Shown piece by piece: positions 2,991 to 54,070 of a DNA stretch of 64,000 nt (position 1 is the first letter of the stretch; each line of letters begins with the position of its first letter). Location of the stretch: the NCBI GenBank assembly GCA_038231275.1, contig JBBRLQ010000025.1, forward strand, positions 49,973-113,972, written 5' to 3'. Source of the DNA: Polyangiales bacterium (GTDB taxonomy: Bacteria; Myxococcota_A; Polyangia; Polyangiales; Polyangiaceae). A program made the position numbers and the translations under genes. The notes under the pieces were generated by a model. The model was given only the letters and a program-made list of their open reading frames with translations. It was not told the origin of the DNA and did not search any database.

Positions 2991-3059
2991 GTGGAGCTCC
3001 TCTCGCCGAGGACGACGACGCACGCATGGAGGTGGGAGGGGGCTTGGGTCATTCGTTCT

Positions 3060-9006: not shown

Positions 9007-9154
9007 CTCGGCGGAGAGAGGTAGGACCTCCTGCGCCCCAGTACGGCGATGGCACGTCTGCGGGGGAAAGCCGGCACCGGCGACGTATATCCTTAGTAGA
9101 CCCCTTCTATTTCACGTTCGGGAGACCGCCGCCGCGTACCAATGAGGGAGCCGA

Positions 9155-21329: not shown

Positions 21330-21368
21330 CTGGGCATTGTTCCGGGGGCTTCGGCTATCATGGGGGCG

Positions 21369-24300
21369 ATGGCTGATCCGCAGCTCGCGCGGACAATCGA
21401 CCTTCTGACGACCCAGCTTTTGATCCACCCGAACGATCCGCACAAGCGGTTCCAGCTCGGGATGGCCTATCGAAACAGCGGGAACCTTCAGGAGGCGATC
21501 AAGGCGTACAAACGCGCGATCACCGCGAAGCCGGATCACGCCGAGGCGCACTACAACCTCGGCGTCACCTACAAGATGGCCGGCGATTGGGCGAACGCCA
21601 CCGACGCGTGGAAGGAGTCGGTGCGTCACAAGCCCGAGCACGCCGAGGGGCACGCGCAGCTCGCGCTCGGGTTGACGCACCTCGGCAAGGGCGACGAGGC
21701 GATCGACGAGTACGCGCGGACGTTGGAGCTGAACCCCGAGCACGTCGCGGCGCGGCGCGAGATCGGCCTCCTCCAGTACCGTCAGGGAAAGTACGCGGAG
21801 GCGGCGGAGCGCTTATACAAGGCCGCGGAAGCGGAGCCGGAGAACGCGGAGCTCTTCTTGCGCCTCGGGCAGTCGTACAACCGGCTCAAGCGCTACGCGC
21901 CCGCGAAGGCGGCGCTCAAAGAAGCGCTCATCTTGAACGAGGCGTCGCCCGAGACGTACAAGGCGCTCGTCGAGGCCTACGCGCGAACCGGCGAGCACAA
22001 CGACGCCGTGATCGCGGCGCGGAAGGCGGTCCAGCACGATCCCAACGACGCCGAATCGCACGCCGAGCTCGCGAAGAACCTCGCGGCGCTGGAGCGCGAC
22101 AAGGAGGCGATCGTCGCCATCAAGCGCGCGCTGGAGCTGACGCCGGAGGATCCGCAGCTTCACGTGGCGCTCGGCGCGTGCTTGATGCGCCTCAAGGATC
22201 CGACCGCGGCGGAGGCGGCGTACCATGAGGCCGTTCGTCTCGCGCCCGACTCGGCGCCGCCGCACGCGGGCCTCGGCACCGCGATGAACGCGCTCGAGAG
22301 GTGGACCGACGCGCTCGACGAGCTGGAGCTGGCGACCAAGATCGACGCGACCTCGGCCCTCGCGTTCACGAGCCTCGGCCTGACGTACAAGAAGCTGGGG
22401 CGCGTGCCGGAGGCGGTCGCCGCGCTCCATCGCGCGGGAGAGCTCGATCCGGCGGACGTCGATCTGCGGTACTCGATCGCGCTGCACCACATCGAGCTCG
22501 GGCAGAACACCGAGGCGATGGACGCCCTCGCGAAGGTCCTCGAGCTGAAGAAGGACCACGCCGACGCGCTGATGAAGCTCGGCGAGATGCGCGTAGCCGC
22601 CGAGCAATGGGCGGAGGCGATCGATCCGCTCAAGATGGCGGTGAAAATCCGCGCGGAGTTCGGGCACGCGTACCAGCTCTTGGCTACGGCGCTGCGCAAG
22701 CTCGGCCGGCACGCGGAGGCGATCGAAGCGTACAAGCACGCGGCGACGAGCGCGCCCAACGACTTCGACGCGGTGCTCGAGATGGGGCGCAGCCAGGCCG
22801 CCGCCGGGAACGACAAAGAGGCGGCGGCGACCTTCGAGCGCGCGCTCGTGATGAAGGCCGATCAGCCGGACGCGCTCTTCGAGCTCGGAATGGCCTGCGC
22901 GCGCATGCGCGATCACGCCGACGCAATCGACGCCCTCGAGCGGGTCGTCAAGATTCGGCCGACGGACCAGCCCGCCGTGTACCAACTCGGCATCGAGTAC
23001 CACGCCCTCCACCGCCACGAAGACGCGGCCAACGCGATTGAGCGGTCGCTCAAGCTGAAGCCCGGAGACTTCGACGCGCAGCGCCTCCTCGGAATGATCC
23101 AATCCGACGCAGGCAAGGATCAGCTCGCGGTCGACGCGTTCGAGAAGGCCCACTGGCTGAAGCAGAACGACGCCGAGATAAGGCGGCGCACGGGCCGCAG
23201 CCTCCTCAAGCTGGGGCGCACGCGCGAGGCGGTGCAGGCGCTCGAGGACGCGGCGCGCATCGATCCGAACGACGCCGAGACGCACTTCACCCTGGGCCTG
23301 GCGATGAAGGAGCTGAACCGCCCGGCCGACGCGAAGGCGCGCTTCGAGAAGACCGTCGCGCTGGCGCCGACGCGCGCGGAGGCGCACATCGAGCTGGGGA
23401 AATTGCTCGACCACTTCGGCGAGACCGCGCGCGCGACCGAGGCGTTCCGCGAGGCGACGCGCCTGAGTCCCGAAGACGCCGACGCCTACGAGCTCGCCGG
23501 ACACGCGTTCATGAAGATCTCGTCATACGTGGAGGCGGCGGCTGCGTTCAAGCACCTCACGCGCCTGCGCCCCGCCGACGCGGTCTCGCTCTTCGATCTC
23601 GGCAACGCGCTCACGCACACCGAGCAGGATCACGAGGCGGTCGACGCGTTCGAATACGCGGCGCGGCAGCGGCCGAACCACACCGCGACGCACGGCGAGC
23701 TCGCGCGGGCGTACGCGCGGGTCGGGCGCGTCGAGAACGCCATCGATTCGTACCGAAGGGTCCTCGCGCTAGAGCCCGGGACGACGTACGCGAGCCTCGA
23801 GCTCGCGGCGCTCCTCGAGAGCGTGGGCCTCCACCAGGACCGCGTCTCGGCGCTCCTCGCGAGCGTGAAGGCGTCGCCGCACGACGTCCAGGCGCGGCTC
23901 AAGCTGGGCATCGCCTACGACGAGCTCGGCCAGGTGCCCGAGGCGATCGCCGCGCTCGAGGCGGTCGTCTCACGCGATCCGTCGGTCGTCGACGCGCAAC
24001 GCCGCCTGGCGCGCCTGCACAAGAACTCCGGCCAGTACGAAAAAGCGATCCTGGCGTGCGAAGCGCTCTTGCGCCTCGGCGCAGAGGACGCCGAGATGCT
24101 CGTGGATCTCGCGGAGAGCCGCCGCCAGCTCAAAGACAATAACCGCGCCCTCGACGCCCTCCATCAGGCGGTGAAGCTCTCGCCCGATCACGTGCCGGCG
24201 TACCGCCTCCTCGCGGACATCTACGTCGAGCTGGGGATGCACGCGGAGGCCGCGCAGGCGTTCGAGAACGTCCTGCGCCGCGAAAAGACCGACATCCCGG

Positions 24301-31954: not shown

Positions 31955-32356
31955 TTACTTCACCGAGATCTTACGCGACATCTCCATGGTGGTCTCGAAT
32001 TTCATGGGCGTTTTTCCGTTCTCGGTCACCAGCGACGCGGCGATCTCGAAGCGGATGATGAGGTCGTCGTTGGGGATGAAGTTCACCCGCACGCCCGTGA
32101 GGCGGGGCTCGTAGGCCTCGATCGTGTGCTTCAGCGCCCGCTGCATCGTCGCGATGGCGTCGGGGAAGTTGTGCAGCATCTCGGTGACGTCGGGAATCCC
32201 GTAATCCGGCAGCGTCGCCATCGAGCCTTGCCGCGTGGACAGCATGCCCTGCAGGTGCTCGAGCAGGTTCTCGCGAAGCTCGCTCGCCGGGATGTTCCTA
32301 CGAGCCGTCGCCAGCTCGGGGTGCCTCACGCGGGAAAGGAGGGATGCGCGCTTCAT
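31955..32356 (-). CDS. tssE: T6SS baseplate subunit TssE (gp25-like)
   Basis: HL...L.TRQG......DYGIPD...I..YEPRL..VRV. Confidence 0.92.
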   Translation of the reverse strand: MKRASLLSRVRHPELATARRNIPASELRENLLEHLQGMLSTRQGSMATLPDYGIPDVTEMLHNFPDAIATMQRALKHTIEAYEPRLTGVRVNFIPNDDLIIRFEIAASLVTENGKTPMKFETTMEMSRKISVK

Positions 32357-33171: not shown

Positions 33172-34656
33172 TCAGGCCTTATCGAGCTTGCCGACGAGGG
33201 AGAGGGTGAAGAACGCGCCCATGTACTTGAAGTGCGGGCGCACCTTCATGTCGACTTTGTACCAGCCGGCGTTCCCCTCGACGTCCTCGACGGTGATCGA
33301 CGCGGCGCGGAGCGGGCGCTTACCCCTGACCTCCGCCGATGCGTTGTCCATGTCGACGACGTACTGCATGATCCACTTGTTCAGATCGTGCTCGAGATCG
33401 CCGCGCTCCTTCGTGGAGCCGAGGGCCTCGCGCTGGAGCACTTTGATGTAGTGCGCGAGACGGCTGATGATGAACATGTACGGCATCTGGGTGCCGAGGC
33501 GGTAGTTGAGCTCCGCTTCGCGTCCCTCCGCCGATTGGCCGAAATACTTCGGCTTTTGGCAGCTGTTCGCGGAGAAGAACGCGGCGTTGTCGGAGTCCTT
33601 GCGGAAGGTGAGGGCGATGAACCCCTCCTCCGAGAGCTCGAACTCGCGACGCTCGCTGATCATGACCTCGGTCGGGATCTTCGTCTGGATCTCGCCCATC
33701 GCCTCGTACTGGTGGAGCGGCAAGTCCTCGACCGCGCCGCCCGCCTGGGGTCCGATGATGTTCGGGCACCAGCGGTACTTGGCGAAGCTGTCGGCGATGC
33801 GCGTCGCGAACGCGTACGTGCAGTTTCCCCAGAGGTAGGTCTCGTGCTGGCCGACCGTCTCCTCTTGGTAGTTGAACGAGCGGACGGGCACCGTGGCCGG
33901 GCCGAACGGGATGCGCAGCAGGAACCGCGGCATCAGGAGGCCGACGTAGCGTGAGTCCTCGGACTCGCGGAAGGATTGCCACTTGGCGTACTGAGGGCCC
34001 TCGAAGATGGCCTTCAGGTCCTTCAAGTTCGGCAGCTTCATGAAGTCTTTGTCGCCGAAAAACTGCGGTGCCGCGGCGGCGAAGAACGGCGCGTGCGACA
34101 TGGCAGAGACGGCGGCGCACTTCTGGAGGAGCAGGATGTCCTGCGGGCCGGGGCCGAACTCGTAGTTCGCGAAGATGGCGCCATACGGCTTGCCGCCGAA
34201 CTGCCCGTATTCCGCGGTGTAGACGGTCTTGTAGAGACCGCTCTTCATGATCTCGGGCGCGTCCTCGAAGTCGTTCAGCAAGTCTTCCTTGCTGCAGTTG
34301 AGGAGCTCGCAGTGGATGTTCTCGCGGAAATCAGTGCGGTCGACCGTGAACTTCAGGCCGCGCCACGCGCTCTCGAGACGCTGGAAGTCCGGGTGGTGGA
34401 GGATGGCGTCGAGCTGCTTCGAGATCTTCCCGTCGATCTCCGCGATGAGCGCGTCGGCGAAGGCGCGATCGACCTTCTCGCGGCGACCCGGTGCGAGGAG
34501 CTCCGAGATGAACGCCTGAACTCCCTTGCGGGTGACGTCGTATCCTTCATCGGTCGGCTTCAGCTGGGTTTCGCTGAGGATGTCGTCGAGCAGCGAGGTC
34601 TCGGTGGTGGTCTCTGCGGCGGCGGCTGCACCAGGCGCGGCTTTCGTGTCGGCCAT
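33172..34656 (-). CDS. tssC: T6SS contractile sheath large subunit TssC (VipB)
   Basis: ILHHPDFQRLESAWRGL, EYGQFGG.PYG, PRFLLR.P, YLWGN, SRLAHYIKVLQRE. Confidence 0.98.
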   Translation of the reverse strand: MADTKAAPGAAAAAETTTETSLLDDILSETQLKPTDEGYDVTRKGVQAFISELLAPGRREKVDRAFADALIAEIDGKISKQLDAILHHPDFQRLESAWRGLKFTVDRTDFRENIHCELLNCSKEDLLNDFEDAPEIMKSGLYKTVYTAEYGQFGGKPYGAIFANYEFGPGPQDILLLQKCAAVSAMSHAPFFAAAAPQFFGDKDFMKLPNLKDLKAIFEGPQYAKWQSFRESEDSRYVGLLMPRFLLRIPFGPATVPVRSFNYQEETVGQHETYLWGNCTYAFATRIADSFAKYRWCPNIIGPQAGGAVEDLPLHQYEAMGEIQTKIPTEVMISERREFELSEEGFIALTFRKDSDNAAFFSANSCQKPKYFGQSAEGREAELNYRLGTQMPYMFIISRLAHYIKVLQREALGSTKERGDLEHDLNKWIMQYVVDMDNASAEVRGKRPLRAASITVEDVEGNAGWYKVDMKVRPHFKYMGAFFTLSLVGKLDKA

Positions 34657-34657
34657 C

Positions 34658-35161
34658 TCAGCTACCCTCTCCTTCGTCGCCCTTGATGCCGAGCTCCTTC
34701 ACGAGCTTCTCGCGTTGGCCGCTGTCGTTCAGGAGCGCCTGGATCTTGCGCTTGAACGCCGGCACGTTGCCGAGCGGGCCCTTCAGGGCGGTCAGTGCCT
34801 TGCGTAGCTCGAGGAGCCTCTTCAGCTCGGGGACCTGCTCGGCGACCGACTCGGGACCGAAGTCCCCGAGGTTCTTGAACTTCAGGTTGACGGAGAGGAA
34901 CGCGTCCTTTTCGCCCGAGAGTTGGTCGGGCACCGACATGTCGAGCGAGAGGTTCTGCTCGGCGAGGACCTGCTGGAAGTTGTCCTTGTCGATGTTGATC
35001 GGCTTGCGATCTTCCAGCGGGCGCGGATCGGGCTTGCCGGTGTAATCGCCGATGAAGAGCATCTGGAGGGGGAGCTCGACCTCTTCACGCGCGTCGCCGA
35101 TCGCCGGCTTGTACACGACGTTGATGCGCTCTTTCGGAGCGACTGATCCTTGTTTCGCCAT
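34658..35161 (-). CDS. tssB: T6SS contractile sheath small subunit TssB (VipA)
   Basis: SVAPKERINV.Y, ELPL, IDKDNF, DF.PE.VA.QVPEL..LLELR.AL..LKGPLGNVPAF. Confidence 0.97.
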   Translation of the reverse strand: MAKQGSVAPKERINVVYKPAIGDAREEVELPLQMLFIGDYTGKPDPRPLEDRKPINIDKDNFQQVLAEQNLSLDMSVPDQLSGEKDAFLSVNLKFKNLGDFGPESVAEQVPELKRLLELRKALTALKGPLGNVPAFKRKIQALLNDSGQREKLVKELGIKGDEGEGS

Positions 35162-42237: not shown

Positions 42238-43602
42238 TCATCGCAAATTCGCGGGGTCTACCGCAAAAAGCTGGAGCGTGATCGCGTCGGGCTCGATCGG
42301 CTGGTAGATGGCGACCGTTCCCGTTCCGGCGATGTCGTTCCAGAAATCCGGGGTCTTCGTCAGCTTGAAATAAATGATGCCGCTGCGCACGGGCAGCGCC
42401 CCCGGGGGCCGGTACTCGAGCTCGAGCTTGGCTCCGTTGACGGCGCTGTTGAGGATCGAGTTGATGTGGTTCCAGGAGGCCACCTTGGTCAGCTTGGGCA
42501 ACCGCTCGCGGACTTGCCCTTCGGGGACGGCGTTGGTGGCGCGGACCGCCACGAAGAACTCGCACTTGAGGAGGGCGCGATCCTCGATCTGGCCGAGGTA
42601 CATGCCGTCCTCGCGCTTGGTGAGCGGAATTTCGATGTATTTCTCCGCCACGACGGCGTCGAGGAGCGTGTACGCGCGCTGGAACATCGGCGCGAAGGTC
42701 TCGCCGAGGTCCTGGAAGTTAAAACGCGGGATCGTGGTCGGATCTCCCTCGACGGCGAACGTACAGAGGAGACCGATGAGCTGCGCGAGCGCGATGTAGG
42801 CGTCCTCTGGGTGGCTGGTGCCTTGATCGGCGAGGTGCGCGAACGGCGGGATCGTCAGGTTGAGGGCATTGAGGAGCCAGAATTTGGCGGCGTCGCTCGC
42901 CTGGAACTCGACCGCGGCCGCGGTGCGCTGGCGGCGCGTATCGGCGAGGCTCCGCTGCTTGGCGGTCATCGCCTCGAGGAGACGCGTGAAGCCGGTCATC
43001 AAGAACTGCGACGCCGAGATGCGGAGCGCCGGCGGGACGAACCCCTCCTTCACGATGATCGTGCCGGTCGCCGAGCGCGTGAGCTGCGCGACGCGGATGA
43101 GATCGAGCGCGTCCTTGCGCTCCTCGCCGATGATGATGCGGTAGTTGCGGCGGGCGAACTGCATCGGCTGCTCGCCCTGCCCGAGGTTGAAATCGAGCTG
43201 CGAGCCGTGCTCGCGGATGAAGCGGGTGAGCGCGCCGGGACGCGCGTCGAGGTCCACGTTCGCGCCGGTGTCGCTCTCGGTCTGGAGGCCGACGAAGATG
43301 TCGAGCGTGCGCGTCTGCGCGGTGAGCGCGTTCTCGATCGGCCGCGCGGGGAGCGTGTCGTCGGTGTTCTCGCCCACGAAGATCGGCGTCCCGTCCGGCA
43401 AAATGGCGCTCAAGCGCTGGAGGCGAAACTGCCCGGTCGCGAGCGCGCGCTCGTCGATTTCGATGTCGGTGACGCCCCAGCCGTAGGGCTGCGCGGCGGC
43501 GATGCGGTCGTGGAGGAGCTGTTCGTGGTAGCGATCGAGCTGCTGAAGGTGGTGCTGCGTGATGAACAGCCCTTCGGTCCAGATCAGCTTCTTCGCCCTC
43601 AT
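42238..43602 (-). CDS. tssK: T6SS baseplate subunit TssK
   Basis: MRAKKLIWTEGLFITQHHLQQLDRY, YGWG, ILPDGT. ATG overlaps the tssJ stop. Confidence 0.94.
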   Translation of the reverse strand: MRAKKLIWTEGLFITQHHLQQLDRYHEQLLHDRIAAAQPYGWGVTDIEIDERALATGQFRLQRLSAILPDGTPIFVGENTDDTLPARPIENALTAQTRTLDIFVGLQTESDTGANVDLDARPGALTRFIREHGSQLDFNLGQGEQPMQFARRNYRIIIGEERKDALDLIRVAQLTRSATGTIIVKEGFVPPALRISASQFLMTGFTRLLEAMTAKQRSLADTRRQRTAAAVEFQASDAAKFWLLNALNLTIPPFAHLADQGTSHPEDAYIALAQLIGLLCTFAVEGDPTTIPRFNFQDLGETFAPMFQRAYTLLDAVVAEKYIEIPLTKREDGMYLGQIEDRALLKCEFFVAVRATNAVPEGQVRERLPKLTKVASWNHINSILNSAVNGAKLELEYRPPGALPVRSGIIYFKLTKTPDFWNDIAGTGTVAIYQPIEPDAITLQLFAVDPANLR

Positions 43603-44279
43603 TTCTCGGTCTTTCCGGGCACGTCGTCCGGTGACGAGTAGGGCATCGTGGCGCCGTTGTGGCGGCCCGGCGCGGGGAAGTCCTCGATGTGGTCCGAGCC
43701 TTCGTCGACCTTGGAGCCGTCGATCCACACGTAGAAATGCGGGTTCAGCGGAATCCCCGCCTCGGCGCCGCCTTCGCCGCAGTCGCCGCTCGGGCAGCCG
43801 GCGAAACACTCGCCCTTGCCGGGCGGCGGCGGGAGTTCGAAGATCGTGAACCAGCTGCGCCCTTTGGGCGTGCGGAAGAGCGCGACGACCCCGACGTAGT
43901 TCGCCGCCGCGTCGCGCTCGAATTTGATGTCGGTGCGCGAGTCCGGGTAGATCGTCATCTGCTCGGTCTTGATGACGCTGTCCTTGAGGGTGTCCTTGGG
44001 ATCCTTCCAGACGTCGTAGAACTTCGCGTTCTGGAGGCGGATGTCGGTCGCGAGCTGGTAGACGAAGAGCTGCACCGGCCGCGGCTCACCGTTGTCGCTC
44101 GGGTTGATGCGGTTGGACGCGATGATCATCATGTCGATCATCTGGAGCGTGCACTTCTGGGGTTCCTTCGGCGCGACGATCGTGGGTCCGCAGGCGACGA
44201 ACGCTCCGAACGCGAGCGCGACGGGCAGCGCGAGCACGAGGACCGCGAGGAGAGACCGAAAGAACCCGAGTCTTGCCAT
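43599..44279 (-). CDS. tssJ: T6SS lipoprotein TssJ
   Basis: Lipobox FVAC; INP...GEPRPV...VYQL; YVGVVA.FR. Start 44279 overlaps the tssH stop. Confidence 0.88.
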   Translation of the reverse strand: MARLGFFRSLLAVLVLALPVALAFGAFVACGPTIVAPKEPQKCTLQMIDMMIIASNRINPSDNGEPRPVQLFVYQLATDIRLQNAKFYDVWKDPKDTLKDSVIKTEQMTIYPDSRTDIKFERDAAANYVGVVALFRTPKGRSWFTIFELPPPPGKGECFAGCPSGDCGEGGAEAGIPLNPHFYVWIDGSKVDEGSDHIEDFPAPGRHNGATMPYSSPDDVPGKTEK

Positions 44280-46933
44280 CAGCCCGATCCCTCCGTGATC
44301 ACGATGTCGCCGTTGCCGTCGATCGTGAGGCGCATGCCTTCCAGCGATTTTTCGGCGGCCATTCGCTGCAGGATCTCGCTCGAGACGAGCGGGAGAACGG
44401 TGCCGCGCAGGATGTGATCGACGTTGCGCGCGCCGCTCTCGACCTCGCGGCAGCGCGCCGCGACCGCGTCGACGACCGAGTCGTCGATCAAGAGCTTGAT
44501 GCCGTGCGACTCCATCGCGCGGCGCGCGACGCCGTTCAGCTTCATGCGCGCGATGCCTGCGAGCGCCTCGGGGCCGATCGGGATGTACGGCACCACGGTC
44601 ATGCGGGCGAGGAGCGCCGGCTTGAAGTGCGCCGTCAGGGTCGGCTTGATGAGCGAGGTGAGGTCCTCGAGGGACGGGATCTCGCCGCCGGGCGGCGCGG
44701 CGCTCGTGAGGAGATCGGTCCCGAGGTTGCTCGTGAGGATGATGACGGTGTTCTTGAAGTCGATGACGCGACCTTCGCCGTCGGCGAGCATTCCCTTGTC
44801 GAACACCTGGTAAAAGATGTTCAGGACTTCCTTGTCCGCCTTCTCGCACTCGTCCAAGAGGACGACCGAGTACGGGCGCTGGCGAACGGCCTCGGTGAGG
44901 ACGCCGCCTTCGCCGAAGCCCACGTAGCCGGGCGGCGAACCGATGAGGCGCGACACGGTGTGGCGCTCCTGGAACTCGCTCATGTTGATGGTGACGACGA
45001 AGCGCTCGCCGCCAAAGAGCAGATCGGCGAGGCCGAGCGCGGTCTCCGTCTTTCCGACGCCGGACGGGCCGACGAGGAGGAAGACGCCCATCGGCTGCGC
45101 GGTGGGCTTGAGGCCGGCGCGCGCCGCGCGAAGCTCGCGCGCGATGACGCCGAGCGCGGGATCCTGGCCGCGAACGCGCTGGCGGAGGCGCTCCTCGGTG
45201 TTGAGGATGCCCTGGATGTCGTCCTTGACCATCTTGCCGACGGGGATGCCGGTCCAGTCGGCGACGATGCTCGCGACGAGACCTTCGTCGACGTCGGCGT
45301 GGACGAGGAGATCCTCGTGCTTGATGGCCTTGAGCTTGTCGATCTCCGCGCGAAGCTCGGGGCGCTTCGCTTCGGCGCCGCCAGCCAGCTCTTTGCGGAG
45401 CTCGTCGATCTTGGTGATGATCTCGCGCTGCGAGGCGGCCTTGGCCTCGAGCTCGGCCGCGCGGATCTTGATCTCACCCTGCTTCGTTTCGGCGATTTTC
45501 TTCGCCTCTTCGTCGATCGAGAGGCCGGCCTTGTAGTCGCGGGCGTACGCCTCGAGCTCGCGCTCGACGGCGGCCAAGGCGGCGCGCGTGTCCTCGAGGA
45601 CCGCGGGGGGTGCGCCGCGGACGACCTTCACGCGCGCGGCGCTGGTGTCGAGGAGATCGACGGCCTTGTCGGGGAGAAGTCGGCCGCTGATGTAGCGGCT
45701 CGAGAGCGTGACCGCCGCGCGCACCGCCTCGTCTTGGATGACGATGCCGTGCGCCTCTTCGAAGCGACCGGCGAGGCCGCGCATCATGACGATGGCGTTC
45801 TCGACCGACGGCTCGTCGACCTTGACCGGCTGAAACCGGCGCTCGAGCGCCGCGTCCTTCTCGAAGTAGCGCTTGAACTCGGCCCACGTCGTCGCCGCGA
45901 TCGTACGGAGCTCGCCGCGCGCGAGGGCGGGCTTCAGCAGGTTGGCCGCGTCGCCGCCGCCTTGTTGTCCGCCGGCGCCGATGATCGTGTGCGCCTCGTC
46001 GATGAAGAGGACGATCGGCTTCGGCGAGGCCTTCACCTCGGCGATGACGCCCTTCAAGCGATTCTCGAACTCGCCCTTCACGCCAGCGCCGGCTTGGAGC
46101 GCGCCGAGATCGAGGACACAGAGGTGCACGTTCTTCAGCTGGTCGGGGACGGTGCCCTCGGCGATGCGGACCGCGAGCCCTTCGACGAGCGCGGTCTTTC
46201 CGACGCCGGCCTCGCCGACGATGATCGGGTTGTTTTTGCGGCGTCGGCCGAGGATGTCGACGATCTGGCGGATCTCCGCCTCGCGGCCGAAGACCGGATC
46301 GATCTCGCCGGCGCGCGCGCGCTCGGTGAGATCGGTCGTGAACTTGGCGAGCGGGCCGTCGGGTTTGCCGAGGCCGGTCGTGCCCTTTTTGCCTTCGCCC
46401 TCGCCGTCGACCCCGCCGCCGCCGCCGCCTTCTTTTCCTGCGGTTTTGATGTCGTCGGCGGCCTCACCGCTCGCGCCGGCGATCGTCGCCAGGTTGCGGC
46501 GAACCTCGTCGCGCGGGAGACGCTCGAGCAGCGCCATCTCCGTCGGGAGATACCGCGTCTGCGCCATGAGCAACCGCACGAGGAGCGCGCCGGAGCGGAC
46601 CTTTTCCTCGCCGAGCTCGGTCGACGTGTAGAGCCACGCGTCCTGGACCCAGTCCCAGAGGAGCGTGTCGAACACGGGCTTGCCGGCGTTGCCGCTGCGA
46701 AGCTCGCTCAGGTAGCGCTGCAAGTACGAGCGCATCCCGCTCGCGTCGATGCGGAAGTGCGTGAGCACCTCGTTGATGTCGCTATACGGATCGTCGACGA
46801 GCGCGAGCAGGACGTGCTCGACGGTGACCTCGTAGTGCCTGGACGACATGCACATCCCGGCCGCCGTGTTGAGGGCGCGGGTGCAGGTCTCGTTCAGCTT
46901 GCGGGCAAGGTTCTTCGGTTCAGCGACGAGCAT
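44279..46933 (-). CDS. tssH: T6SS AAA+ ATPase ClpV (TssH)
   Basis: GEAGVGKT and GPSGVGKT Walker A motifs, RRRKNNP, KDAALERRFQ; position at the head of the T6SS operon. Confidence 0.97.
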   Translation of the reverse strand: MLVAEPKNLARKLNETCTRALNTAAGMCMSSRHYEVTVEHVLLALVDDPYSDINEVLTHFRIDASGMRSYLQRYLSELRSGNAGKPVFDTLLWDWVQDAWLYTSTELGEEKVRSGALLVRLLMAQTRYLPTEMALLERLPRDEVRRNLATIAGASGEAADDIKTAGKEGGGGGGVDGEGEGKKGTTGLGKPDGPLAKFTTDLTERARAGEIDPVFGREAEIRQIVDILGRRRKNNPIIVGEAGVGKTALVEGLAVRIAEGTVPDQLKNVHLCVLDLGALQAGAGVKGEFENRLKGVIAEVKASPKPIVLFIDEAHTIIGAGGQQGGGDAANLLKPALARGELRTIAATTWAEFKRYFEKDAALERRFQPVKVDEPSVENAIVMMRGLAGRFEEAHGIVIQDEAVRAAVTLSSRYISGRLLPDKAVDLLDTSAARVKVVRGAPPAVLEDTRAALAAVERELEAYARDYKAGLSIDEEAKKIAETKQGEIKIRAAELEAKAASQREIITKIDELRKELAGGAEAKRPELRAEIDKLKAIKHEDLLVHADVDEGLVASIVADWTGIPVGKMVKDDIQGILNTEERLRQRVRGQDPALGVIARELRAARAGLKPTAQPMGVFLLVGPSGVGKTETALGLADLLFGGERFVVTINMSEFQERHTVSRLIGSPPGYVGFGEGGVLTEAVRQRPYSVVLLDECEKADKEVLNIFYQVFDKGMLADGEGRVIDFKNTVIILTSNLGTDLLTSAAPPGGEIPSLEDLTSLIKPTLTAHFKPALLARMTVVPYIPIGPEALAGIARMKLNGVARRAMESHGIKLLIDDSVVDAVAARCREVESGARNVDHILRGTVLPLVSSEILQRMAAEKSLEGMRLTIDGNGDIVITEGSG

Positions 46934-46958: not shown

Positions 46959-48758
46959 CTACTTATCATCTCGGCGGCCGTGATCGGCTCGCTTGGTGGT
47001 GCGGGCCGGCCTCGGGACGTCCGGGGCCGCCGCGGCGCCTTTGGCGGGGGACGGAGGCGCGACGTCCGGCGCACGAGGCGCGCCGCGGGGGGTGGCGAGG
47101 GCGTAGCCGCGAAGCACGTCGCCGTCGTCGCTCGACGCCTTCTTCCTCGGCACGACGGTGTCGCCCGGCTGGAGATCCTCCGCGTCGGACTGCGCTTCTT
47201 GCTGCTCGAGGCGCGCCTGGGCACGCTTCTTCGCGATCCGTCCCATCACGTCACCGCGGACGTTCAAGGAGAGGAGCATCCCCTTCTGCAGCTTCGCGGA
47301 GGGGTCGAGGTAGTTGCCGTCGAGGATTTCCTGGACGCTGACGCCGAACATCTTCGCGACGTCTTGAAGCGTCTCGTGGTCGCCGACGCGGTAAAATACG
47401 GTGCGCCCGGCGGTCGCGGGGGCGTCGTCGGCGTCGAGCGGCCACTGGCGCGCGGCGCGGCGAGGAGCCCGCGGGGCGTCGAGGAGATCGTCGCCGCCCT
47501 GGCGCGCCGAGAGATCGCGGCGCGGGATCTCGTCTTTGCCCCAGTCGAAGCCGCGACCCACCTCTTGCTCGAGGCCGTCGCGCTCGCGCTGATCGAGGAG
47601 GCGCGGCAGCATCGCGTGCGCGCGGGCGAGGCCGCTCGACGGGATGTGCGCCAGGAACGATTTGCCGCGATCGGGGATCTGGTCGCCGACGAGCTCGGGG
47701 TTCAAATCGTGGAGGTGTTGGATGCTCGTGCCGGCCGCGCGGGCGACGACGGCGAGATCGATGCCGGGGGGAACTTCGAGGTTGGAGACGGCGATCGGCA
47801 CGTCGACGTGCGTGTCGTCGAAGCCGAAGCGCTCCAGGTTATTGAGGAGGATGGCGACCGCCACGATCTTCGGGACGTAGAGCTGGCTCTCGCGCGGCAG
47901 GGCGCCGTTGATCTTCGCGAGCGTCCAGAAGTCGTTGCTCCCGGTGTCGCGCACGCGATCGAGCATGCCTTTGTAGCCCATGTTGTAGGCCGCGAGGGCG
48001 AGCTCCCATGAGCCGAATTTCTCGTACAAATCGGACAGGTGCCGCGTCGCGGCGTCGCTCGCGCGGGCGATGCTCCGGCGCTCGTCGTAGTCGGCCTCGA
48101 CGGCGAGCCCGTACGCGCGCGCGGTGTCCGGCATGAACTGCCAGAGGCCGACGGCGCCGGCGTGCGACGTCGCGAACGGCGAGAACCCGCTCTCGATGAA
48201 GACGAGCGCCATCAAATCGCGCGGGAGCATGCGCTCGCGAAGCGCGGTCTCCACGACCTGGCGATAGCGGCCGCTGCGCTTGAGCCACATGCGGAAGATC
48301 TTCCGGCCCTGGGGATTTTGGGTGAAGTAGTGGACGAAGCGCGCCACCTTCACGTCCGCGTGGACCGGCAAGTCCGGCATGCGGAGGCCGGTCATCCAGT
48401 CGGAGCTGCCCTCGTCTTCGCGGCACGCCGTCCCGTCCTGACAGACATCGGGCTCGGTCGGCGTGGGAAGCGACGCCTGAGCCTTCGCCTTCGGCAGGTC
48501 ACCAAACAGCTGTTTTTCGGCCTGACGGAGCGCGCGGAGCTCCGGCGACTCGGCGCCGTCTTGCGCCGCGGGCATCGGCTCGAGGCCAGGCATGCCGAGC
48601 GCGTCGGTCTCGAGCGCGCCGGCGACAGGCTCTGCCGTTTCGGCCACAGGCGCGGCCTCCTTCGAGGCCCACCCGGGACGCGGGAGGCTGAAGCCGATCA
48701 CGAGTCCGCCCGCTACGACAGCGCCGTAGGTAATGAAATCTCGCCTAAGGGAACGCAT
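46959..48758 (-). CDS. MltD-like lytic transglycosylase (SLT + LysM)
   Basis: IESGF...A.S.AGAVGLWQFMP.TA, LA.AAYN.G, YVPK; LysM-like segments (L..LNPEL; YRV...ETL..VA..FGVS). Start approximate. Confidence 0.88.
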   Translation of the reverse strand: MRSLRRDFITYGAVVAGGLVIGFSLPRPGWASKEAAPVAETAEPVAGALETDALGMPGLEPMPAAQDGAESPELRALRQAEKQLFGDLPKAKAQASLPTPTEPDVCQDGTACREDEGSSDWMTGLRMPDLPVHADVKVARFVHYFTQNPQGRKIFRMWLKRSGRYRQVVETALRERMLPRDLMALVFIESGFSPFATSHAGAVGLWQFMPDTARAYGLAVEADYDERRSIARASDAATRHLSDLYEKFGSWELALAAYNMGYKGMLDRVRDTGSNDFWTLAKINGALPRESQLYVPKIVAVAILLNNLERFGFDDTHVDVPIAVSNLEVPPGIDLAVVARAAGTSIQHLHDLNPELVGDQIPDRGKSFLAHIPSSGLARAHAMLPRLLDQRERDGLEQEVGRGFDWGKDEIPRRDLSARQGGDDLLDAPRAPRRAARQWPLDADDAPATAGRTVFYRVGDHETLQDVAKMFGVSVQEILDGNYLDPSAKLQKGMLLSLNVRGDVMGRIAKKRAQARLEQQEAQSDAEDLQPGDTVVPRKKASSDDGDVLRGYALATPRGAPRAPDVAPPSPAKGAAAAPDVPRPARTTKRADHGRRDDK

Positions 48759-48900
48759 CGTAGGGAAAGGGTCGCACACCCCAACGGGCGGGCCCAAGAA
48801 ACCGGCTGTGCCCTCGCGTCGCGCGCGCGACGTGCGATCGCGCGCGGCGGAGCGGCCCACAAATGGTGGTCCACGGCCTGGCTCTGATAGGCTGCTGGTC

Positions 48901-50316
48901 GTGTTCGGTCTGGACGTAAAGATCATCAACACCCAAGAAGGCACGTCCACCGAGCGGAGGTTCGAGCGCTTCCCGATTCGCATCGGGCGCAACGCCTTGA
49001 ACGATCTTCAGATCGACTCGGGCTACGTCTCGCAATTTCACGCAATCATTCAGCTGTCCGGCGACGAAGTGCACCTCGTCGACCTCGGAAGCCGCAACGG
49101 AACACTGCTCCCGGGAATGGGACGCGTGCAGCCCAACGCGATCGTCGATCTGGCGACGAGCAACTTCGAGTTCGCGATCGCGATGACGATCTTCCGCGTC
49201 AGCCTCGTGAATCTCGACGCCGCGGCGCTGTCACGTCGGCGCGGCGGTGTGCACGACATCGCCGAGGAGATGACGCGTCCGCACGGCACCGACGTCGGCG
49301 CTGCGATGGTCACCCACCTGAAGCCGCTGTACGAGACCTACCGCCAAGCGTGGGGGCGGCTCTATCAGGAGATCCAGAGCACGATCGGCACCTACGACGC
49401 GGAGATGCGCCAGCGCTTCTGCGAAGACCTGATGATCGCGCACCCGAACGTCGCCGCGGAGCCGGATTTCAAGCGGCTCGCCAACATCAGCCCGTCGTCG
49501 ACGCCGTCGGGCTCGCACCAGATCCATGTCGACATCGAGGCGAGCCACTCCGCGCTCGATCCGCCGCGCGAAGAGGCGGTCGCGCTGCACGGATTGAAGC
49601 AGCTCGCACAGTGGTACATGCCGGGCGTGGCGCCGCCGGCCGGCGTCGAGGACATCATCGGCTTCTTGCAGACGATCCAGGATTCGCTCGACGTCTTCCT
49701 CAAGTGCTTCGTGCCGCTTCGCGACGGGTACAAGCAGTTCGAGGTGCAGATGGACATCCAACGCGTGCGCAGCGACGGCGTGCGCGTCGGCAGCTCGGTG
49801 GAGGTCGCGCGCGATCCGCGGGAGCTGGCGCGCGCGATGCTCGATTGGCGCCTCACGGTCGGGGACGAGCCGCGCATCGTCGAGAACACGTTCGCGGATC
49901 TGATGACCCACCAGGTCGCGATGCTCAACGGCATCATGAAGGGGGTCAAATCGCTGCTGAACGAGCTCGCGCCTGAGGCGATCGAGAAGACGCTCGACGA
50001 TCCGCGCAAGAACCGCGGGCGTCAGGGCCTGCAGATCGGCCCGTTCCGCTACAAGCAGCTGTGGGAGCTGTACATGGAGCGCCACGGCGATCTGTCGTCC
50101 GAGGACAAAGAAGCGTTCGCGCTCATCTTCGGCCCGCAGTTCGCGCAGGCGTATTCGCAGTTCCAGGAAGGCGTGGGCGCGATGCCGACGACCGCGACGG
50201 TGGAGCTCTCCACCGTGAGCGCCGCGCTCGCCGAGGGCCAGCGCGGCCTTCACAACCACACGCAACCGCCGCCGCCGCCGGGGCCGCCGGGGCCGTACTG
50301 GCCGCCCCGGCGTTGA
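48901..50316 (+). CDS. tagH: FHA-domain T6SS-associated protein (TagH-like)
   Basis: IGRNALND, VSQFHA, DLGSRNGT (FHA); C-terminal F.DL..HQ.A...G...L..L.P...W..Y...FG..FA.AY. Confidence 0.85.
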   Translation: MFGLDVKIINTQEGTSTERRFERFPIRIGRNALNDLQIDSGYVSQFHAIIQLSGDEVHLVDLGSRNGTLLPGMGRVQPNAIVDLATSNFEFAIAMTIFRVSLVNLDAAALSRRRGGVHDIAEEMTRPHGTDVGAAMVTHLKPLYETYRQAWGRLYQEIQSTIGTYDAEMRQRFCEDLMIAHPNVAAEPDFKRLANISPSSTPSGSHQIHVDIEASHSALDPPREEAVALHGLKQLAQWYMPGVAPPAGVEDIIGFLQTIQDSLDVFLKCFVPLRDGYKQFEVQMDIQRVRSDGVRVGSSVEVARDPRELARAMLDWRLTVGDEPRIVENTFADLMTHQVAMLNGIMKGVKSLLNELAPEAIEKTLDDPRKNRGRQGLQIGPFRYKQLWELYMERHGDLSSEDKEAFALIFGPQFAQAYSQFQEGVGAMPTTATVELSTVSAALAEGQRGLHNHTQPPPPPGPPGPYWPPRR

Positions 50317-50389
50317 GCGCCGATCGTAAGGTGGAGTGCGTTTTCTTGGCCCGGTCGTCGTTTCATTGCGACGCTTGCATCAAGGAACG

Positions 50390-51058
50390 ATGAGCTTGCG
50401 CACCGTCTTCGCGACCTTCTTGCTATGCGCCACCATGCTCGTGGCCACCTCGGCACACGCGCAAGCGGTGAGCCCAACGCCCGACCGCGATAAAACGTGG
50501 GCCGCAGTAACCGGCATCACGATGATCGCCGGCGCGGGCACGCAGCTGTTCATGCCGCGCGTCTTCTACTCGGATCCCGAGGTGACCGTCGGCTGGAAGG
50601 GCCGCTGGCACGTCTCGGTGCTCGCGCCGTTCATGACGCTCACCGTCCTGACGACGCTGAACGAGATCGCGCTGAAGGACGCGCTCCAGGGCAACCGCCC
50701 CGGATGCGACGACACCAACCGCGGAGTCGTCTCGCACTGCGACTCGTACGGCATGATGTCGACGCATACCTTCGCGGCGGCGTCGGCCCTCGGGCATGGC
50801 GCCGGCGTCTTCATCTTCGACACGCTCAAGTGGAGCGGCGGGCGGGTCAACGGCTACGGGCTCACCGGCAACGTCATCGCGCCGTTCGTGTTCGGGATGA
50901 TCACAGCGGTCGGCCGCAGCCTCGGAAACTGGGAAAATGCCGGGCAAATCGTGCTCGGCGGCGTCACCGGCCTGACCTTCGGCTTCCTCAGCGGGATGAC
51001 GTACGCGCTGATGCAGCGCCCCGAGTGCGGGTACACCGGCAGCCTCATCTGCTGGTAG
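50390..51058 (+). CDS. Exported/membrane hypothetical protein, weakly PAP2-like
   Basis: Signal peptide ending AHA and several TM segments. LK......RP...MMSTHT...GR loosely parallels PAP2 motifs. Confidence 0.6.
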   Translation: MSLRTVFATFLLCATMLVATSAHAQAVSPTPDRDKTWAAVTGITMIAGAGTQLFMPRVFYSDPEVTVGWKGRWHVSVLAPFMTLTVLTTLNEIALKDALQGNRPGCDDTNRGVVSHCDSYGMMSTHTFAAASALGHGAGVFIFDTLKWSGGRVNGYGLTGNVIAPFVFGMITAVGRSLGNWENAGQIVLGGVTGLTFGFLSGMTYALMQRPECGYTGSLICW

Positions 51059-51067
51059 CCTGACGGG

Positions 51068-52963
51068 GTGAGCGACTCCCCCATCAAGAGCTTCGGCGTA
51101 GGGTTCGGTTCCGGCTCGGCCGCAGGCAAGGGCGGCAAGGGCGGCGGGCAGAGCGGGGATGGACCGTCACGCGGTCCGTTTCGCGTAGTCCTGGTCTCTG
51201 CGCTCGCCGCGGGCGAGCAGTGGACGACGCGCAGCCGACCGCCGGCCGACGCGGTGCCGGTCGACAAGTCGTCGTTCGAAAAAGTGATGGCGAAGCTCGC
51301 GCCGTCGCTGGCCGTCGAGGTGCGCGATCCCTTCACGCCGGACGGCGAGCCGCTGAAGATCGATCTCCGCTTCGCCGATCTGAAGTCGCTTCGCGCCGAT
51401 GGGATCGTGGAGCAAGTCCCCGTTCTCCGCGCGCTCGTGGAGGCCCGCAAGGTCGTCGCGCAGATCAAGGAGCGGAAGCTCGGAGTCGACGACGGGCGCA
51501 ACCAGCTCGCCCGCATCCTGCCGCGCGCCGCGTGGGCAGACGCGCTCACCGGAGAGGTGACGACCGCCCCAACCGCTGCGGCCCCCGCCGAAAAGCGCCC
51601 GAAAGGGGCGCCGCCGAAAGTGCCGCCCGCTCCCGACACGCTCGACGCGCTGTTCGACAAGGTCGGGGTGAAGGATCCCGACGCCACTGCCGAGCCGCCG
51701 CCCGTCGCGCCGCTCACGGCGGCGAAGGAGCCGGTGCCGTCCGAGTTCTCGAACCTGATCGCGCAGGTGGCGCGCGGCGGAAAAGCGCCGCCTCCCGCGC
51801 GCGCAGCGGCGGTCGTAGGCTCGGCGATCGAGAAGACCGAGCGCGCCTTCGGGCGAATCCTCGTCGAGGTGCTGCATCACCCGGAGATCCGGCGCCTCGA
51901 GCGGGCCTGGCGCGGCTTCAAGCTGCTCGTAGACGGCGTCGACATGCGCCTCGGCGTCGAGCTCGACGTGCTGCCCGTAGAGAAGGAAGGCACCGCCGCC
52001 GCGATCACCGCGCTCTCGGAACGAAACGGCATCGAAGCGTCGAGGTCGCCGGTAGATCTCTTCGTGGCGGATCACGACGTGGAAGGCACCGCGGAGGACA
52101 CCGCGCTCTTGGCGACGTGGGCGAAGGCATGCGCGGATTGCCACGCGCCGATCGTCGTCAACGGCCGCCCGAGCATGCTCGGCGTGACGCAGATGACCGA
52201 TCTCCCCAAGGCCATGCGCGCGCTCGGGGCGACGGCCGATCCGCGCCCCGAGGCGTCGCGTGCCCTCTCGAGCGACGACGCGACGCGCTGGGTGACGGTG
52301 GCGATGAACGGTCCCCTCGTGCGCGCGGCGTACACGTCGTCGTCGTCGCGCCTGCGTGAGATCGCGTTCAGCGAGAACCCGAAGGATCCGGCGAGCCACG
52401 TCTTCGCGGGGGCGTCGGTGGCGATCGGGATCTTGTGCGCGCAGAGCCACGTGCGCATCGGGTGGCCCACGGCGATCGTGGGGCCGCGCGAAGGTGCCGT
52501 CGAGAACCTCGCGGTCCACGAGGTCGAAGAAGGCGGGCAGTCGTACGCGATCCCCCTCGAGGTGATGGTGGGCGACGACGTGCTCAAGGAAGGCGCGCGC
52601 GCTGGCGTCGCACTCTTTGGATGTGGCGCGAACCACGACGCGGCGTTCCTGCTCCGCGCGCCGACGTTCCACGAGCGCGCGCCGCGGGCGGGGCACGGCA
52701 CGCTCGGCGATCAGCTCTTCATCGGGCGGTTCGCGAGCGCGGTGCAGCAAGTGGCCGCGGCGCTCCCGAGCGACGTCGACGGGCACGCAGGCGCCGAAGC
52801 CGCAAAAATCGCCTTGAGCGAGCTCTTCGAAGGCGCAGGCCCCTCGGGCCCCGAGCTCTCCGCGCGCATCGCCTCGGGCACCCTCGAGGTCAAGGTCCGC
52901 CCCCGCCGCTTCGCCGGCGTCGCCCTCGAAGAGCTCACCCTCTCCGCCCCCCTCGGCGCTTAA
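51068..52963 (+). CDS. Fused TssB-like + TssC-like sheath protein (divergent)
   Basis: N-terminal VDKSSFEKV...LRFADL.SLRADGIVEQVPVLRALVEARK aligns to TssB. After a Pro/Ala linker, VLHHPEIRRLERAWRGFKLLV aligns to TssC. Confidence 0.82.
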   Translation: MSDSPIKSFGVGFGSGSAAGKGGKGGGQSGDGPSRGPFRVVLVSALAAGEQWTTRSRPPADAVPVDKSSFEKVMAKLAPSLAVEVRDPFTPDGEPLKIDLRFADLKSLRADGIVEQVPVLRALVEARKVVAQIKERKLGVDDGRNQLARILPRAAWADALTGEVTTAPTAAAPAEKRPKGAPPKVPPAPDTLDALFDKVGVKDPDATAEPPPVAPLTAAKEPVPSEFSNLIAQVARGGKAPPPARAAAVVGSAIEKTERAFGRILVEVLHHPEIRRLERAWRGFKLLVDGVDMRLGVELDVLPVEKEGTAAAITALSERNGIEASRSPVDLFVADHDVEGTAEDTALLATWAKACADCHAPIVVNGRPSMLGVTQMTDLPKAMRALGATADPRPEASRALSSDDATRWVTVAMNGPLVRAAYTSSSSRLREIAFSENPKDPASHVFAGASVAIGILCAQSHVRIGWPTAIVGPREGAVENLAVHEVEEGGQSYAIPLEVMVGDDVLKEGARAGVALFGCGANHDAAFLLRAPTFHERAPRAGHGTLGDQLFIGRFASAVQQVAAALPSDVDGHAGAEAAKIALSELFEGAGPSGPELSARIASGTLEVKVRPRRFAGVALEELTLSAPLGA

Positions 52964-53095
52964 AATTCAACGCCCCAGGTGGCCGCCGTGCCCCGCACGG
53001 CTTCGCCCGCAGGGCGAGGCAGGGAGGCTCCTAACGCGTCCGCGTTTGGAGGGACCGCAGGTCCTACACGACCGAAGTAGTCGAGCCCCGCTCGA

Positions 53096-54070
53096 CTACG
53101 GACCGACCCCGGTGCAGGCGTTGGTCGTCGCGATCACGTTCTTTAGGCAGATCTTCGCGACCGGATCGCACAGCCCGGACTTGCACTCGCTTCCGTCCGC
53201 GCAGGCCGCCGGGGAGATCTTCTTGTCAACGCAGGTCTTGGTGCCTGGATCGCACAGCGTCGACGTATCGCACTCGACCGACGACGCGCACGGCGCGCCT
53301 TGCGAACCGACCGCCGCGCAGAGACCGGCGCTCGGCCCGGACGAGACGCAATACGCCGTCGGCAGGCACGAGCTCGGCACCGACGCGAGGCACGGGCCCG
53401 CGACGTCTTGCTGCGGGAGGCACGTGAGCGACGCGGGATCGCAGAAGAGGTTCATCCCACCCTCGCACCCGTGCGGTGGCGTGACCTTGCACGGCGCGCC
53501 CTGCGGAGGCACCGGCGACGCGACGCACACCGGCTCGCTGAAAGGCTGCGCGAGCGGGAGCTGACCGCCGCCGTCCGAGCCCGGAGGCAGCGGCGAGCAG
53601 GATACGACCTGCCCGTCCACCGGCGCGCACTCTGCGTTGGAGTTGCACGCCGCGCCGGGCGGCTTCTTTCCCGAATAAATCTGCTGACACCTATCGCGCG
53701 CCGCCGAGATGCTCCCGGGCTCGGGGGCGCAGCTCGTCGTCTTCGCGTCGCGGACCTGCGCGATGCAGTCGCTGGCGGCCTTCGCATCGTAGTTCGCGAG
53801 GGCGGAGTTGTCGGCCACGACGCGGGTGCGAATCAGCGAGTTCCAGCCCGCGGTGCATGCGTTGTAGTCGAAGCGGACGGTGTTCTCGGCGCAGCAATGC
53901 TGAAGGCTCGTGCAGAGCGCCTCCGCGTACGCCGACGGAAAACGATCGGCCGATATGTAGATGCTCTTCAAGCTGGTTCCGCAGCCCGTCGGCGCGGTCG
54001 CCACGAGGGCCGCGGCGGCCGCAAGGGCGAGCGCGCACGCGGTGGACTTCGAGAAGCGCATGAGGTTCAC
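53096..54070 (-). CDS. Cys-rich myxobacterial-type lipoprotein
   Basis: Signal peptide ending PTGC; repeated G.AC....EC....C motifs. Confidence 0.78.
   Translation of the reverse strand: MNLMRFSKSTACALALAAAAALVATAPTGCGTSLKSIYISADRFPSAYAEALCTSLQHCCAENTVRFDYNACTAGWNSLIRTRVVADNSALANYDAKAASDCIAQVRDAKTTSCAPEPGSISAARDRCQQIYSGKKPPGAACNSNAECAPVDGQVVSCSPLPPGSDGGGQLPLAQPFSEPVCVASPVPPQGAPCKVTPPHGCEGGMNLFCDPASLTCLPQQDVAGPCLASVPSSCLPTAYCVSSGPSAGLCAAVGSQGAPCASSVECDTSTLCDPGTKTCVDKKISPAACADGSECKSGLCDPVAKICLKNVIATTNACTGVGP

Follow-up and report, generated by a model that had tools for sequence, protein, structure and literature searches.

A fused TssB-TssC protein encoded beside a complete type VI secretion locus in a Polyangiales bacterium: a possible accessory sheath protomer

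A stretch of 64,000 nucleotides from a Polyangiales bacterium (assembly GCA_038231275.1, contig JBBRLQ010000025.1, positions 49,973 to 113,972; hereafter the window) encodes a complete canonical type VI secretion system (T6SS) and, at 51068..52963 on the plus strand, an additional gene whose product joins a TssB-like and a TssC-like part in a single chain. Fused TssB-TssC proteins of this type constitute a large family of accessory paralogues, which is separated from canonical TssC in a phylogenetic tree. One chain would correspond to a complete T6SS sheath protomer, and the protein would be a functional accessory paralogue rather than the bulk sheath. Our tentative reading, with a probability of roughly 0.4, is that it may serve as an accessory terminal protomer, inserted in the TssBC mesh, that offers a handle to ClpV and is tied to the Fha checkpoint. 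No description of a natural fused TssB-TssC paralogue was found in a full-text literature search, which covered subscription journals in part.

The product consists of 631 amino acids (aa) from a GTG start. Two orthologues (L001 and L002) share 74-75% identity with it, and the conservation begins at residue 2. In a Pfam scan, PF05591 (VipA) matched aa 37-163 with 64.9 bits (cut-off 24), and PF05943 (VipB) matched with 123.3 bits (cut-off 27), its best stretch being aa 327-529. The initial annotation of the window, which was made from the sequence alone, had proposed an extra single-chain TssB-TssC protein beside a complete canonical tssBC; two domains, and not a single one, were found above cut-off. 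The TssB-like N-terminal part, which had been aligned by eye, was also recovered by BLASTP against the TssB of the window (33% identity over 81 aa, E 4e-10). The alignment with the TssC of the window (25% over 302 aa, E 9e-20) contains all three of the TssC motif pairs that had been quoted. VipA and VipB were the sole Pfam families detected in the protein; the scan gave no match to PF18945 (VipB_2) or to any sheath family of phages or contractile injection systems. The scores against the NCBIfam equivalogs of TssB (TIGR03358, 67.1 bits, cut-off 97.25) and TssC (TIGR03355, 121.6 bits, cut-off 271.5) were both under cut-off; therefore, the protein is related to TssB and TssC without being an equivalog of either. 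A single canonical tssB-tssC pair, located 16 kb from the fused gene, exists in the entire genome (9.28 Mb in 164 contigs, with 94% completeness). The domain matches, the complete T6SS locus and the presence of one canonical TssC besides the fused gene together confirm the proposal of an extra fused sheath protein.

An AlphaFold2 model of the fused protein was built on 35 homologues. The mean predicted local distance difference test score (pLDDT) was 83.3 and the predicted template modelling score (pTM) was 0.80; pLDDT fell below 50 only at residues 1-31 and in parts of 179-240. The top Foldseek matches of the model were TssC chains (E 8e-17 to 1e-11). Using VIA-align, residues 248-619 of the model were superposed on residues 61-477 of TssC with 361-367 aligned residues and Z scores of 24-28 (5n8n_B, 27.9; 5myu, 27.4; 5urw_1B from Myxococcus xanthus, 25.5). 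The single-chain sheaths of phages, pyocins, AFP and PVC were aligned over residues 32-620 with Z scores of 16-21, and the values for the AFP, PVC and pyocin chains were 18-19. The analogy with single-chain phage sheaths drawn in the annotation thus holds for the fold but not for the sequence, which is of the T6SS type (TssB plus TssC). The parts of the protein are given below, with conservation expressed as the share of the majority residue in the family alignment (A1).

51068..52963, plus strand: the whole fused TssB-TssC paralogue gene
51083..51112, plus strand: N-terminal strand-like motif I-K-S-F-G-V-G-F-G (aa 6-15); share 0.68, pLDDT below 50
51113..51175, plus strand: Gly/Ser-rich tether of variable length (aa 16-36), 22 residues here; conservation 0.27
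51176..51556, plus strand: TssB-like (VipA, PF05591) part (aa 37-163); pLDDT 90-96, conservation of the TssB-like core 0.69
51566..51631, plus strand: Pro/Ala-rich variable linker (aa 167-188), 8-36 residues long in the family; conservation 0.41
51632..51670, plus strand: helix motif T-L-D-A-L-F-D-K-V-G-V (aa 189-201), the putative counterpart of the ClpV-binding N-terminal helix of TssC
51740..51778, plus strand: second conserved helix in the linker (aa 225-237), by-eye comparison with TssC aa 43-56; conservation 0.64
51809..52666, plus strand: TssC-like body (aa 248-533; PF05943), covering the beginning of the inner domain as well as the middle domain; VIA-align Z 24-28
52667..52900, plus strand: shortened C-terminal inner (handshake, gp25-like) domain (aa 534-611), from the model against VipB 61-477 (5myu); conservation 0.69
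52901..52960, plus strand: C-terminal arm (aa 612-631), resembling the TssC C-terminus by eye; the most conserved segment, 0.78

The C-terminus had been described in the annotation as shortened and degenerate. It is indeed shortened, and the inner domain and a segment of the middle domain are both shorter than in TssC. However, it is not degenerate: the last 20 residues are the most conserved of the protein, and the C-terminal 100 residues can be assigned to the TssC inner domain because 367 of the 372 residues from 248 to 619 were aligned. Residues 534-619 of the model superpose on the inner domain of TssC. The inner (handshake) domain is thus present in the model of the fused protein and is identified from this predicted structure. 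The profile alignments with PDB entries end at the first helix of this domain, and the last 25 residues parallel, by eye, the hairpin and arm of canonical TssC. D503 is the counterpart of D333 in VipB, and the position is occupied by D or E across the family; D333 has been reported to be needed for contraction (PMC5797969). At the opposite end of the chain, the motif at aa 6-15 is likely the counterpart of the N-terminal arm of TssB. The spacing between this arm and the core ranges from 11 to 22 residues in 32 family members, compared with 12-13 residues in all 30 canonical TssB proteins of the phylum; another 14 fused sequences, of the 46 considered, deviate from the pattern and lie outside this count.

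The gene is conserved. A homologue search returned 36 further proteins of about 620 aa with 40-75% identity, and a second search, which used a diverse alignment (A2), recovered virtually the same set of 38 proteins. Both Pfam domains were detected in 36 of 37 homologues, including that of the window, and the exception is a partial sequence. Across 35 homologues, 46 alignment columns are invariant. The ratio of nonsynonymous to synonymous substitution rates (dN/dS) of the fused gene against L001 and L002 was 0.25-0.27 overall and 0.17-0.38 by region, while the values for the neighbouring genes against L002 were 0.06 (TssL), 0.12 (ClpV), 0.13 (TagH), 0.14 (membrane open reading frame, ORF) and 0.23 (TssK). 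The gene is thus under purifying selection, and the neutral evolution that the annotation had considered as an objection was not found. A maximum-likelihood tree calculated from the TssC-like parts separated 20 fused proteins from 15 canonical proteins (two canonical subtypes) with 100/100 support; the long rows L031 and L032 were left out of this tree, and a quick tree took all rows. The fused lineage is old because its split from canonical TssC has this support. For the same pairs of genomes, the fused proteins differ by 0.57-0.68 substitutions per site and canonical TssC by 0.08-0.18. The fused protein therefore diverges 4-7 times faster than canonical TssC.

The distribution was investigated in a phylum-wide sample of 401 genomes, 46 of which contain VipA matches. 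Fused genes were verified with Pfam in 15 of these 46 genomes (G000, G002, G033, G071, G100, G103, G110, G120, G230, G273, G305 with two copies, G315, G355, G365 and G380). Canonical TssB is present in 13 of the 15, the exceptions being G365 and G071 (assembly completeness 93-95%); 10 genomes of the 15 have the fused and the canonical gene on one contig, no more than 40 kb apart. Among relatives in the phylum, VipB was above cut-off in 11 of 11 and VipA in 8 of 11. Outside this sample, a profile search of 1.84 billion representatives gave at least 150 clusters at 50% identity, each with at least 325 bits, and nearly all of their representatives are 500-690 aa long and cover both halves. Atlas clusters containing both domains have 281, 56 and 95 members, and one Atlas member belongs to a metagenome-assembled genome labelled Cloacimonetes. 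A metagenome scan and other loci yielded 62 non-redundant fused loci, which fall into about 14 subfamilies. The N-terminal arm motif occurs in sf2, the subfamily of the window, and in sf3, where its version is like the canonical TssB arm.

Several variants of the protein were observed. Truncated paralogues in G103 (L148), G273 (L149), contig 91 of G305 (L151) and G002 (L031) stop right after the VipB middle domain, and G305 has one full-length and one truncated copy. Three members of sf4 (L034:8381-10144, L035:8458-10242 and P0059) lack an N-terminal arm and are extended at the C-terminus, where the sequence ends in G-[SG]-[VI]-G-F-D-[VA]-[GS]. This end motif resembles the N-terminal S-F-G-V-G-F-G of the window, and the tethered strand seems to have moved between the ends of the chain. 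L079, a metagenome contig with 39% GC, contains two fused genes in tandem (8193-9821 and 9950-11794; 543 and 615 aa). They have no other T6SS gene within 8-10 kb, and their neighbours encode a TetR regulator, a phosphate transporter and glycosidases. Long open frames in G173 were considered as a canonical in-frame fusion, and this was ruled out because its TssC is a separate ORF of 497 aa.

The segment between the two halves had been noted as a Pro/Ala linker. The linker stands, yet it contains counterparts of the N-terminal helices of TssC, and the conservation of the two linker helices is 0.64-0.68. The first helix carries the motif hydrophobic-D-x-[IL]-[LF]-x-x-V, placed 35-125 residues before an ESAWRG-type anchor. 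The motif was found in 53 of the 62 non-redundant loci (2.1 expected from shuffled segments) and in 90 of 112 representatives (3.5 expected). A similar N-terminal helix, S-L-L-D-[DE]-I-L, is present in the canonical TssC proteins of the phylum; the TssC of the window has S-L-L-D-D-I-L at the same relative place. Binding of ClpV to TssC's N-terminal helix has been reported (PMC5048182). From the resemblance of the motifs, we infer that the linker helix is the counterpart of this ClpV-binding helix and that the fused protein may bind ClpV.

According to an uncontrolled count, 27 of the 62 loci, from 5 of the 14 subfamilies, have a gene for an FHA protein no more than 4 kb away from the fused gene. 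The proportion is 11 of 14 in sf0, in which a tandem-FHA protein is encoded directly upstream, and 5 of 8 in sf2, in which the FHA protein is TagH. It is 6 of 8 in sf3, with the gene order fused gene, FHA-SLT protein, PP2C and kinase, and 4 of 4 in sf4, with the order TagH, lipoprotein and fused gene, followed by a kinase in two of the four (L034 and L035). The remaining values are 1 of 2 in sf7 and 0 of 26 in the other nine subfamilies. Among the 46 VipA-positive genomes, 10 have both the fused gene and TagH, 7 have TagH only, 5 have the fused gene only and 24 have neither; a strict co-occurrence of the two is ruled out by the 7 and 5 genomes with one of them. Two loci of a distant subfamily (L083:12179-13753 and L073:7902-9584) have a single FHA-SLT protein directly after the fused gene, followed by PP2C and a kinase with a PEGA domain. 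In the sf0 locus L127, a protein of 272 aa with two FHA domains (9045-9860) is encoded directly upstream of the fused gene, and a COMM-domain protein (12664-13284) just downstream.

The acceptor domain, the C-terminal arm and D503 are kept, the N-terminal tether is not fixed in length, and the protein evolves fast; this combination leads to the reading of an accessory protomer at an end or ring boundary of the sheath. As candidate roles, the annotation had named a sheath initiator, a cap or terminator, a contraction modulator and a ClpV decoy, and its interpretation is supported in part. The fused protein would plug into the TssB/TssC mesh as a terminal or minor subunit via its C-terminal arm and handshake domain. 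The retention of these two elements favours such a mesh-plugging subunit, and the variable N-terminal tether fits a subunit that is terminal or does not transmit force. The most natural site would be the baseplate-proximal end or a ring boundary. The former is considered because the sheath arms point toward the baseplate: the linkers are reported to run in this direction, and TssE has been proposed as the acceptor of the linkers of the first ring (PMC5813253). At an end of the sheath, the ClpV-type recognition helix would be permanently displayed, and its conservation keeps the idea of a ClpV-related role alive. The fused protein may also connect the Fha checkpoint with starting, stopping or dismantling the sheath. 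This is suggested by its gene lying together with that of TagH/Fha and, in other lineages, with genes for kinases and phosphatases. Fha is reported to join the basal complex before sheath assembly and to be needed for this assembly (PMC6082577). In a more specific version, which we consider unlikely, the fused protomer would be a phospho-regulated primer or terminal subunit that physically links three things, namely the checkpoint of threonine phosphorylation and Fha, the first ring of the sheath, and ClpV; it would decide when a sheath may begin growing on the baseplate or be dismantled without firing.

Some observations weigh against a terminal protomer tied to Fha. The low identity to TssC (25%) leaves it uncertain whether the lateral interfaces fit the canonical lattice. 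The C-terminal domain was not significantly related to the C-termini of canonical TssC in sequence (hhalign, E 0.29), in line with the missing PF18945 match, and the N-terminal motif is undocked in the monomer model. The members in sf0 and sf4 have no N-terminal arm, and those of G002 (497 aa), G103 (462 aa), G273 (475 aa) and contig 91 of G305 (435 aa) have neither the inner domain nor the C-terminal arm; therefore, a function common to the whole family cannot depend on the handshake. The copies in G230, L079 and L145 are far from any T6SS gene. The association with FHA is not universal either, being 0 of 9 in sf1, and TagH is found in 10 of the 15 fused-positive genomes.

Some of these observations might also be explained by a soluble regulator or adaptor that never enters the sheath and whose body scaffolds the ClpV-type helix and perhaps phospho-sites for FHA, acting as a ClpV decoy or as an Fha-ClpV bridge. 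Outside the core, no other feature is retained as widely as the helix motif (53 of 62 loci), which the truncated protein of G002 also has, while the inner domain is dispensed with in some members; moreover, the helix lies in a linker of low confidence that is probably disordered, so that it would always be exposed. The FHA, kinase and PP2C genes in the neighbourhood agree with such a role. However, a scaffold needs neither the C-terminal arm nor the C-terminal domain, and these are among the best-conserved parts in sf2 (0.78 and 0.69). We regard a purely soluble function as possible but doubtful. The length of the tether may instead point to a contraction brake, namely subunits scattered in the sheath that interrupt or delay the contraction wave in the manner of the long-linker variants VipA-N3 and VipA-N5. 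The tether of 22 residues exceeds the 12-13 residues found in 30 of 30 canonical TssB proteins and is not fixed, and engineered VipA with at least two additional linker residues is reported to be non-contractile and dominant negative on co-expression (PMC5797969). On the other hand, some members have the canonical spacing (11-13 residues) and others lack the N-terminal arm, the acidic residue matching D333 of VipB is kept, and a constitutive brake encoded together with an activator (tagH) in one operon would defeat its purpose if it were not under tight regulation. Such a brake appears improbable.

The relatives located away from T6SS genes (the tandem pair of L079 and the orphan copies in G230 and L145) would be compatible with a phospho-regulated polymer that is independent of the T6SS and has only its ancestry and, in the window, its neighbourhood in common with it. 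We give little credence to this explanation: the gene closes the likely tagH operon within a complete T6SS locus here, 10 of the 15 phylum genomes have it on one contig with canonical tssBC, and the gene contexts on short metagenome contigs are incomplete. The complete protomer fold with handshake domain and C-terminal arm, together with the acidic residue equivalent to D333, might also suit a second type of bulk sheath, which would polymerise on its own around Hcp when conditions differ. This is very unlikely in view of the divergence, which is 4-7 times faster than that of canonical TssC, and of the scores below both equivalog cut-offs. In addition, the spacing of the N-terminal arm varies, yet contraction is reported to need an exact linker length (PMC5797969), and the gene is situated among regulatory genes and not beside hcp and tssE. 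Finally, a dN/dS of 0.25, compared with 0.06-0.14 for TssL, ClpV, TagH and MemX, could be taken as a sign of a decaying duplicate without function. The frame is intact, however, dN/dS is about 0.25 in every region, the 46 invariant columns and at least 150 clusters attest to conservation, and the lineage split from canonical TssC long ago with 100/100 support; decay is scarcely credible. An accessory terminal protomer thus stays our preferred, though tentative, reading.

The gene neighbourhood agrees with the annotation, which had placed the fused gene two genes after tagH and on the strand opposite to the core operon. tagH, an ORF of 240 aa and the fused gene follow each other on the plus strand, 19 and 9 bases apart, and likely form an operon. 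A scan of 48300-53300 for promoters and terminators gave no promoter-like site and three terminator-like sites (2.7 expected). The features that are relevant to the fused gene are the following.

31955..32356, minus strand: TssE
33172..35161, minus strand: canonical tssC (33172-34656) and tssB (34658-35161); VipA 183.5, VipB 430.1 and VipB_2 145.9 bits
44279..46933, minus strand: clpV, the presumed reader of the helix motif
48733..50316, plus strand: tagH (FHA and T6SS_FHA_C), the first gene of the likely operon
50336..51058, plus strand: ORF of 240 aa between tagH and the fused gene, membrane or secreted protein; no Pfam family

The canonical T6SS comprises TssA, B, C, Hcp, E, F, G, J, K, L, M, ClpV, TagF and three VgrG. 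On the minus strand, the core is arranged as TssG, TssF, TssE, Hcp, TssC, TssB, TssA, TagF, TssM, TssL, TssK, TssJ, ClpV and an SLT/LysM protein. The fused gene as a replacement of TssE was ruled out, since TssE is present at 31955-32356. The longest TssJ ORF (43599-44849, minus strand) overlaps the ClpV ORF (44279-46933, minus strand) by about 570 bases; its start is probably further downstream, as the SciN domain does not start before aa 238. The SLT/LysM protein, a lytic transglycosylase (46959-48992, minus strand), is divergent from tagH. Three VgrG, a PAAR protein and a DUF2169 protein are encoded upstream of the core. The VgrG genes are located at 9155-11851, 12306-15095 and 15771-18533 on the plus strand, and two of the three products have C-terminal domains of the metallopeptidase type (Aspzincin_M35 and Peptidase_M91). 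The PAAR protein has 823 aa (552-3023, minus strand), and the DUF2169 protein is encoded at 19253-20251. Between the VgrG island and the core, a protein of 1735 aa (21360-26567, plus strand) consists almost entirely of TPR repeats.

The product of the 240-aa ORF has a signal peptide and several hydrophobic segments, and the ORF occupies the same place in L001, L002 and L026. It corresponds to Atlas clusters of a 'secreted protein' that are confined to Myxococcota (0.94-0.96), and a likeness to PAP2 is a weak lead (0.86-0.88). Downstream of the fused gene and convergent with it, a Cys-rich ORF of 324 aa (53096-54070, minus strand) has a lipoprotein-like N-terminus and no Pfam family; it is kept at this position in L001 and L002 (62-71% identity).

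Few contractile machines have been studied as thoroughly as the T6SS sheath, which is described as a polymer of two proteins. To our knowledge, no canonical-type T6SS uses a second sheath species. If the fused proteins are real subunits, they would represent an unrecognised component of many T6SSs, with a part in sheath nucleation, termination, contraction or ClpV recycling; if the phospho-regulated primer were true, many environmental T6SSs would have two sheath species. The link to FHA, kinase and phosphatase genes, the ClpV-type helix and the C-terminal arm offer handles on the role of Fha between the basal complex and the sheath, and on how the ends of a sheath are defined.

Compared with canonical TssB/TssC (VipA/VipB, HsiB1/HsiC1; 3J9G, 5MXN, 5N8N, 5URW/5URX), the fused protein retains both Pfam domains, the TssC fold, the ESAWRG-type motifs, the C-terminal hairpin with its arm, a helix resembling the one bound by ClpV and an acidic residue at the position of VipB D333. 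It differs in being one chain instead of two, in the absence of a VipB_2 match, in its shortened inner domain, and in its N-terminal arm, whose motif differs from that of TssB and whose tether has no fixed length. The gene also sits with tagH, unlike canonical tssBC, which sits with hcp and tssE. Extracellular contractile injection systems possess several sheath paralogues (Afp2/3/4 and Pvc2/3/4), some of which are confined to particular rings. The single-chain fold of these sheaths matches the model of the fused protein, but their sequences do not place it in the same family. TagJ, TssA and TagA are accessory, lineage-restricted T6SS proteins that are thought to act on sheath assembly or ClpV recruitment; they are accessory like the fused protein, but they do not have a sheath fold, and no homology was seen. 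A further parallel is provided by VipA-N3 and VipA-N5, in which an N-terminal linker lengthened by at least two residues is reported to give non-contractile sheaths and which co-assemble with the wild type (Brackmann et al. 2017, PMC5797969). In VipA-N3 sheaths, successive rings are described as joined by the C-terminal linker alone (Nazarov et al. 2018, PMC5813253). Both are sheath subunits with an elongated N-terminal linker, as is suggested for the fused protein. However, they are laboratory insertions of 2-7 residues in canonical VipA, whereas the fused protein is a natural, old and divergent paralogue, and it may be regarded as a natural counterpart of the long-linker VipA mutants that have been used to trap extended sheaths.

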